Origin: Escherichia coli
Lineage (GTDB): Bacteria; Pseudomonadota; Gammaproteobacteria; Enterobacterales; Enterobacteriaceae
Assembly (NCBI RefSeq): GCF_003334405.1
Contig: NZ_QOWM01000001.1
Strand: one strand, 5' to 3'
Length of the DNA stretch: 64,000 bases
Part shown: one piece after another, positions 45,933 through 46,579 of the stretch
Layout of the letters: each line of letters starts with the position of its first letter
How positions within the stretch are numbered: the stretch's first letter is position 1
The notes under the pieces: model-generated
The model's database searches: none
Told to the model about the DNA's origin: nothing
What the model saw: only the letters and a program-made list of their open reading frames with translations
Translations under genes and position numbers: made by a program

Positions 45933-46199
45933 ATGGAATGGCTGGTCAAAAAATCGTGCTGCAATAAACAAGATAACAGACATGTACTTATGCTCTGCGA
46001 TGCTGGCGGCGCGATAAAAATGATCGCCGAAGTGAAGAGTGACTTCGCCGTGAAAGTGGGGGATTTACTCTCGCCTTTGCAGAATGCGCTTTATTGTATT
46101 AATCGTGAAAAGCTGCATACGGTGAAAGTCCTCTCGGCAAGCAGTTATAGCCCCGATGAGTGGGAACGGCAGTGTAAAGTGGCAGGGAAAACTCAGTAA
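45933..46199 (+). CDS. pmrD: PmrD, connector protein of the PhoPQ to PmrAB pathways
   Basis: ORF 45903..46199 trimmed to the ATG at 45933 ([20 protein letters not shown]..., 88 aa). Confidence 0.85.
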
Positions 46200-46579
46200 C
46201 GTTGTTTTGTCGTGGGCAGGAAAATCAGCATCAACCCGCTCATAATACAGGCTACTCCCAGTAGTGCTTTCAGCGAAAAAGTCCCTTCCCAGCCGGGAAG
46301 TACCATTGAAGCAATCCATACCAGCACATAACTCATACTGAGCAAGGCATAGGCTTTGCTTAGCGCAAGTTTATGAAGCGTTTTATACCAACAAAAAACG
46401 GAAAGCAGATAACCCAGCAGCCCGAGTAACAGTATCCGGGCATCCAGGCCAAAAGCTAACAGAGCCGCGATAAAATCCCATAAGTGCGTCATCGGCGGCA
46501 GATGACTCGCCGCAAAACCCAGGCTTAATTGCGCAACTGAGGCAATAATGACGCTGAATAATCCCCACATCAGGCCCAT
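46193..46579 (-). CDS. arnF: Undecaprenyl-phosphate-Ara4N flippase subunit ArnF
   Basis: Track ORF 46193..46861 trimmed to the in-frame ATG ([12 protein letters not shown]..., 128 aa) that overlaps the arnE stop (TAATG); four-helix membrane protein. Confidence 0.85.

Follow-up and report, generated by a model that had tools for sequence, protein, structure and literature searches.

The convergent pmrD–arnF junction of Escherichia coli: a 7-bp coding overlap within a polymyxin-resistance circuit

The genes pmrD and arnF of Escherichia coli, which belong to a common polymyxin-resistance circuit, converge so tightly that their coding sequences share their last bases. This raises the question of whether the junction works as a regulatory element, in which the arn operon and the gene of its connector hold each other back by antisense RNA or transcriptional interference, or whether it merely reflects two genes packed tail to tail. 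If the junction mediates feedback, a two-component connector circuit that ranks among the best studied would gain a cis-RNA layer, and this could explain how E. coli, which has no PmrA box at pmrD, keeps PmrD within limits. The locus is analysed here within a stretch of 64,000 nucleotides of E. coli DNA, referred to as the window, and all positions are those of the window unless another sequence is named.

Anatomy of the junction and identity of the two genes

The window differs from MG1655 by a single mismatch over a 15-kb stretch, which identifies it as E. coli K-12, and a window position w converts to MG1655 position 2419471 − w. On the plus strand, menE (44468–45823) is followed by pmrD (45933–46199), which runs from the ATG at 45933 to the TAA at 46197–46199 and encodes, according to its open reading frame, its translation and RefSeq, the PhoP-activated connector protein of 88 residues. 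On the minus strand, arnF (46193–46579 in RefSeq; 128 residues) is the terminal gene of the arnBCADTEF operon, with its ATG at 46579–46577 and its TGA stop read as tca at 46193–46195. It is preceded by arnT (46911–48563) and by arnE (46579–46914), whose stop shares 1 nt with the arnF start. The two converging coding sequences have in common the 7 bp TCAGTAA (46193–46199). On the pmrD side, these bases comprise the wobble position of T87 followed by Q88 and the stop codon, and on the arnF side the wobble position of R127 followed by Y128 and the stop codon. Any deletion or tagging of pmrD or arnF must keep the last codons and the stop of its partner.

The 7-bp convergent overlap, with stops at 46199 and 46193, had been described in a first-pass annotation of the window, and its coordinates are exact. 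The RefSeq annotation of MG1655 places arnF at 2372892–2373278 and pmrD at 2373272–2373538, with the identical overlap, which is annotated likewise in other, unrelated strains. Among 5426 complete genomes of E. coli, 5420 carry the locus and 5418 contain a single copy of the 35-nt junction. The overlap is thus real and previously annotated, and it is unremarkable unless a regulatory role is demonstrated for it.

Both pmrD and arnF are genuine genes, and with their shared 3′ bases they form a convergent overlapping pair on opposite strands. That the overlap might be an artefact, in which one of the two stops, that of pmrD or that of arnF, is not the true end of the protein, was considered solely because mis-annotation sometimes affects short genes for membrane proteins, of which arnF is one. 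Nothing was found in favour of this reading, and several observations speak against it. Stop codons are no matter of annotation choice, and both frames are intact and agree with their family profiles: PmrD matches the NCBIfam equivalog NF011994 with 175 bits, well above the cut-off, up to residue 85 of 88, and ArnF matches NF002816 with 140 bits, also well above the cut-off, over residues 4–122 of 128 only. In addition, the PmrD sequence is identical to that of the solved structure PDB 2JSO, and the junction recurs in E. albertii. An artefact, which has next to no chance of being the right explanation, was consequently rejected on the basis of the profile matches of both proteins and of the recurrence of the junction in 5418 genomes.

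Packing, stop-codon drift and overlap length

Conservation ends at W77 in PmrD and at P122 in ArnF, and these residues are separated by a spacer of only 50 nt (46164–46213), which encodes non-conserved C-terminal tails in both directions. An alignment of PmrD homologues is conserved through W77 and variable thereafter, and the protein tails beside the junction are unconserved across the taxa compared. In a neutral simulation of 20,000 trials, an overlap of the two frames arose in 84% of cases when the spacer was replaced by random sequence of the window's composition and in 79% when it was replaced by shuffles of itself, and the pmrD/arnF overlap is no greater than expected by chance. Since each frame runs through the short spacer to its first in-frame stop, the overlap can be understood as a by-product of tight packing and stop drift.

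The comparison of relatives, which drew on a contig scan that yielded 11 loci with narrow peptide patterns and hence on a limited sample of taxa, points in the same direction. From stop to stop, E. coli (TCAGTAA) and E. albertii (TCAGTAG) both have a distance of −7, Salmonella enterica (TCATGA) has one of −6, and the Citrobacter amalonaticus group has distances of +3 and +9. The 7-bp overlap of the TCAGTA type is kept in the Escherichia loci that were read, and a tight abutment, with 33–57 nt between the conserved cores, is kept in Escherichia, Salmonella and Citrobacter, whereas overlap length is not. Distances of −7, −6, +3 and +9, together with a simulated frequency of about 80%, are what drift of stop codons within non-conserved tails would produce.

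Overlaps of this kind are common in E. coli, where 58 (Lillo & Krakauer 2007, PMC2174442) or 75 (Huvet & Stumpf 2014, PMC4161906) convergent overlaps between coding sequences have been counted, and where the same surveys ascribe them to mutation of stop codons and find predicted intrinsic terminators in only 20% of the genes involved. Like the short convergent overlaps of prokaryotes in general (PMC2174442, PMC4161906), pmrD and arnF are real genes on opposite strands, each stop falls a few bases beyond the other, it is their non-conserved tails that overlap, and there is no intergenic terminator, so that they make up one of those 58–75 E. coli pairs. They differ from the others in nothing material, and the only special point about them is the polymyxin-resistance circuit that they have in common.

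On these grounds, the junction is probably explained by neutral packing and stop-codon drift, together with termination of the Rho type, with no designed element in the overlap itself. Against this neutral explanation, the conservation of the tight abutment could reflect selection rather than a deletion bias.

Some of the loci examined show disturbed genes on one side of the junction. In locus L003 (NZ_CM194529.1, 1634–1895), pmrD is annotated as a frameshifted pseudogene and the overlap with arnF is still there. In Escherichia sp. MOD1-EC7003 (L005), arnF is truncated, with a match to residues 39–128 only, and pmrD is kept. Similarly, only the last 22 codons of arnF match in E. coli SCPM-O-B-8794 (L006), where pmrD is kept with a shifted stop (90 residues). 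The gene content of these last two loci suggests that some Escherichia lineages have lost part of the arn operon. In Salmonella enterica subsp. arizonae CCUG 6322T (L012, 3256–3626), arnF is spread over three frames, owing to a frameshift or a sequencing error, while its sister subsp. diarizonae has an intact arnF of 125 residues with a 6-bp overlap with pmrD.

Transcript ends across the junction

An overlap of at least 7 nt between the two transcripts is forced, because each complete mRNA includes its own stop codon, and the mRNAs extend beyond these 7 nt because no intrinsic terminator stops them there. The arnF–pmrD pair is among the 165 convergent excludons of E. coli reported with ExcludonFinder (Nucleic Acids Res 2025, PMC12288877), which were listed when a coverage analysis called them in no fewer than 50% of the 58 RNA-seq data sets from MG1655, and whose authors remark that arnF and pmrD belong to one pathway. 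For genes with overlapping coding sequences, such a classification is close to automatic. Hence, the statement of the first-pass annotation that the transcripts must overlap at their 3′ ends follows by logic and is borne out by the RNA-seq listing (PMC12288877), and as an inference it is correct but trivial, nearly tautological, and already published; the overlap of the genes and that of their transcripts are both known, annotated and in print. As for the position of the ends, neither the Term-seq supplement of Adams 2021, searched by gene names and MG1655 coordinate prefixes, nor the SMRT-Cappable-seq supplements hold entries for this region.

Two converging transcription units usually end at a bidirectional intrinsic terminator. 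A textbook example occurs in the window at 13812–13845, also between convergent genes, with a 12-bp GC-rich stem, a dG of −25, and T8 on the plus and T6 on the minus strand, and this served as the positive control. Unlike such loci, the pmrD/arnF junction has neither the room for such an element nor a GC-rich hairpin flanked by A- and U-tracts, and no bidirectional terminator was found there. A consensus terminator scan detected none at the junction. A ViennaRNA scan of the whole window, in which a hairpin had to reach dG ≤ −6 and precede a U-rich tail, returned 1111 candidates for the two strands together (median dG −8.9), and none on the plus strand between 45684 and 46636. The sole candidate downstream of arnF lies on the minus strand (46113–46144; tail CTTTTCAC); with a dG of −7.2 it is weaker than the median candidate of the window (−8.9) and indistinguishable from chance. 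No credible combination of hairpin and U-tract is thus found within about 450 nt of the junction on either strand, and the absence of a terminator between pmrD and arnF, as first proposed, holds for intrinsic terminators in both scans.

A different possibility is that cryptic intrinsic terminators are hidden inside the coding sequence of the partner, at 46285–46300 for pmrD and at 46144–46113 for arn. Each mRNA would then have a 3′ UTR that is short and has a defined end, and the overlap would be fixed at approximately 100–200 nt. Hairpins do exist at both positions. The first of them is a perfect palindrome, CTTCCCAGCCGGGAAG, situated within arnF (codons PGWEG) 86–101 nt past the pmrD stop, which folds on either strand into a 6-bp GC-rich hairpin with a dG of about −8 to −10, and is followed by CTTTTTC on the arnF-sense strand and by a poor U-tract, TACCATTG, on the pmrD strand. 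Such an embedded location would be in keeping with the E. coli excludome, where TransTermHP terminators overlap the transcription unit of the neighbour in 146 of the 165 convergent excludons (ExcludonFinder, PMC12288877), and with the surveys of overlapping genes, in which about 20% of the convergently overlapping E. coli genes have predicted terminators inside the partner (PMC2174442, PMC4161906). However, both candidates are weak, the palindrome as well as the arn-side hairpin lying within the chance distribution of the window, and neither is conserved in Salmonella or Citrobacter. Among the loci compared, the palindrome is confined to Escherichia, being present in E. albertii and absent from Salmonella and Citrobacter, and a terminator scan of the E. 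albertii, Salmonella and Citrobacter loci found none that is conserved in position. The only hairpin that does recur in position, at 46636–46663, lacks covariation. A pair of embedded terminators is therefore very unlikely, although the palindrome could still act as a structure that stabilises the 3′ end of the pmrD mRNA or terminates it weakly.

The recurrent hairpin on the plus strand (46636–46663), antisense to arnE and about 460 nt past the pmrD stop, was also weighed as a possible conserved terminator of pmrD and dismissed: its consensus energy is −4 kcal/mol, there are no compensatory pairs, and its recurrence is explained by W-H/H-W codons of ArnE. Similarly discarded was the T-run right after the pmrD stop (GTTGTTTTG), which is the complement of Lys and Gln codons in the basic tail of ArnF and has no hairpin upstream. 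An Rfam scan of 44000–49000 at E ≤ 1 returned no match.

A further candidate mechanism is termination by Rho, which prefers RNA of a C-rich and G-poor composition. Downstream of the pmrD stop, the untranslated RNA antisense to arnF is C-rich and G-poor at 46213–46355 (plus strand), and downstream of the arnF stop, zones with more C than G extend antisense to pmrD over 45985–46192 (minus strand; 46192–46102 and 46127–45985). The C/G ratio after both stops is 1.5–1.8, a skew which is generic for the antisense strands of E. coli genes. Both regions are put forward as candidate Rho loading zones, and judging from composition only, termination at this junction is most likely Rho-dependent. An RNA polymerase leaving pmrD or arnF would run antisense into the partner gene, where Rho would most likely release its untranslated, C-rich and G-poor transcript after no more than a few hundred nucleotides, and head-on collisions between polymerases would contribute whenever both promoters are active. 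The 3′ overlap of the mRNAs expected from this sequence of events would comprise the 7 obligatory nucleotides and, as a likely length, roughly 100–400 nt.

For practical purposes, a cassette inserted at the junction will transcribe into the partner gene, and expression work on pmrD or on the 3′ genes of the arn operon should be strand-specific.

A further source of transcripts may lie upstream. No intrinsic terminator is predicted after menE in the menE–pmrD intergenic region (45824–45932), and therefore transcripts of the men operon may read into pmrD and onward into the antisense strand of arnF.

Evidence bearing on feedback between pmrD and the arn operon

The first-pass annotation had also proposed that the arrangement could support feedback of an antisense or interference type, linking the connector with the operon it activates. 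According to such a model, in which the pair would be a functional excludon, read-through of the arn operon driven by PmrA-P, together with the antisense RNA, would cross the 267-nt pmrD gene and its promoter, and the synthesis of PmrD would be lowered by collision, promoter occlusion or cleavage by RNase III. Conversely, PhoP-driven transcription of pmrD would damp arnF and arnE. In E. coli, where pmrD lacks a PmrA box, this would replace the feedback that operates at the promoter level in Salmonella.

Excludons, with Listeria mogR/lmo0675-0677 as the prototype and the E. coli excludome as a collection (PMC12288877), resemble arnF–pmrD in being convergent neighbours with overlapping transcripts, and arnF and pmrD are indeed neighbours on opposite strands. 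The trait that defines an excludon, however, is mutually exclusive expression by means of interference or RNase III, whereas arnF–pmrD has been classed by transcript overlap only. Moreover, excludon genes have opposing functions, and arnF and pmrD act in the same direction, both promoting the Ara4N modification. Another convergent pair of the PmrAB circuit listed by ExcludonFinder is pmrR–basS (pmrB) (PMC12288877), at a different locus outside the window and with different genes; the region downstream of the pmrB 3′ end influences the level of the pmrB mRNA (PMC8004244). A literature search found no experiment on reciprocal expression, or on antisense or interference feedback, between pmrD and arn.

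The features that favour feedback are the lack of a terminator between the two genes, the RNA-seq-catalogued overlap of genes in a common pathway (PMC12288877), the retention of the tight junction across three genera and the absence of a PmrA box from the E. coli pmrD promoter. Against it, the ExcludonFinder call is nearly automatic where coding sequences overlap, the extent of overlap is not conserved, and Rho should shorten the C-rich antisense RNA.

RNA duplexes provide evidence on both sides. In the tables of RNase III-generated dsRNA captured with p19, which come from LB cultures, where both genes are poorly expressed, no duplex for pmrD, arnF or arnE is among the matches listed, which speaks weakly against feedback. 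On the other hand, two captured duplexes of 21–22 nt map exactly to the 3′ end of menE, at 45801–45822 and 45724–45744 (Huang et al. 2020, supplementary file 7), and therefore minus-strand, antisense RNA is present even beyond pmrD, as the feedback model would have it. This RNA could stem from read-through of the arn operon across all of pmrD or from a local antisense promoter, and, given the dsRNA at the end of menE, minus-strand read-through may be longer than assumed. A weak sigma-70-like sequence on the minus strand, TTGACC-16-TATCCT (45922–45949), sits in the first codons of pmrD and points towards menE. The menE antisense RNA may originate there; one site of this kind is within chance expectation for the region.

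The pmrD promoter lies in the menE–pmrD intergenic region, where a by-eye reading finds a PhoP-box-like direct repeat, cGTTgA-N5-aGTTTA (45865–45881), which is degenerate, with three mismatches. A search for the PmrA box pattern YTTAAK-N5-YTTAAK with up to two mismatches found none in this region (45824–45932) of E. coli. The same search recovers, as a positive control, the PmrA (BasR) box CTTAAGGTTAAGTTAAT upstream of arnB (53642–53658, minus strand), at the promoter where the converging arn transcription begins, and the Salmonella pmrD promoter holds a PmrA-box-like site, ATTAATGTTAGGTTAAT (locus L017, 3399–3415). The E. coli promoter is thus devoid of a box of the Salmonella type. In E. coli O80:H26 EC-107 (L018, 453–1150), an IS1A has inserted between menE and pmrD, either within the pmrD promoter or adjacent to it, and pmrD and arnF are otherwise intact.

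In the work of Kato et al. from 2003, mutation of the Salmonella PmrA box reportedly abolished the repression of pmrD. This repression (Kato, Latifi & Groisman 2003, cited in PMC2565834 and PMC3140997) follows the same logic as the feedback proposed here, as the PmrA-activated state leads to less PmrD, and it has been ascribed to repression of the pmrD promoter by PmrA (PMC2565834, PMC3140997), not to convergent transcription; the box-like site is there in Salmonella and missing from the E. coli window. The authors who report the Salmonella loop state that it is absent in E. coli (PMC2565834, PMC3140997). What argues against feedback from the junction is that Salmonella, with the same architecture (a 6-bp overlap), has been reported to need PmrA at the promoter (PMC2565834, PMC3140997).

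Gene order outside these genera adds to the case against it. In Klebsiella pneumoniae, whose PmrD acts as a connector, pmrD lies between a gene for an alpha/beta-hydrolase and amn (metagenomic contig L016, 3501–3746), and not beside arn. As this PmrD functions from a locus unlinked to arn, adjacency is unnecessary for the function of the connector. The published absence of pmrD repression in a pmrA mutant of Klebsiella was considered as a natural test of interference and set aside as inapplicable, pmrD not adjoining arn in this organism. In Intestinirhabdus alba (L013, 3001–4114), pmrD follows menE and both arnE and arnF are absent from the locus, so that the connector gene appears to have been retained in this species with no arn operon beside it, which likewise tells against a strong effect.

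Taken as a whole, antisense or interference feedback is a reasonable hypothesis, and the indirect evidence leans against a strong effect. A functional excludon or cis-antisense feedback at pmrD–arnF is unlikely, and mutual interference between pmrD and arn, as we infer it, is probably weak. Even harder to credit is the stronger version for Escherichia, in which unterminated, PmrA-activated read-through of arn over pmrD and its promoter constitutes a negative feedback in cis, read-through of pmrD reciprocally trims the ArnE/F flippase, and the junction is a selected device; this we regard as highly doubtful. Neutral packing with stop-codon drift is the account preferred here. To judge from the gene orders compared, the position of pmrD has changed during the evolution of the enterobacteria, and in Intestinirhabdus alba the place after pmrD is occupied by an open reading frame of 201 residues (3509–4114).
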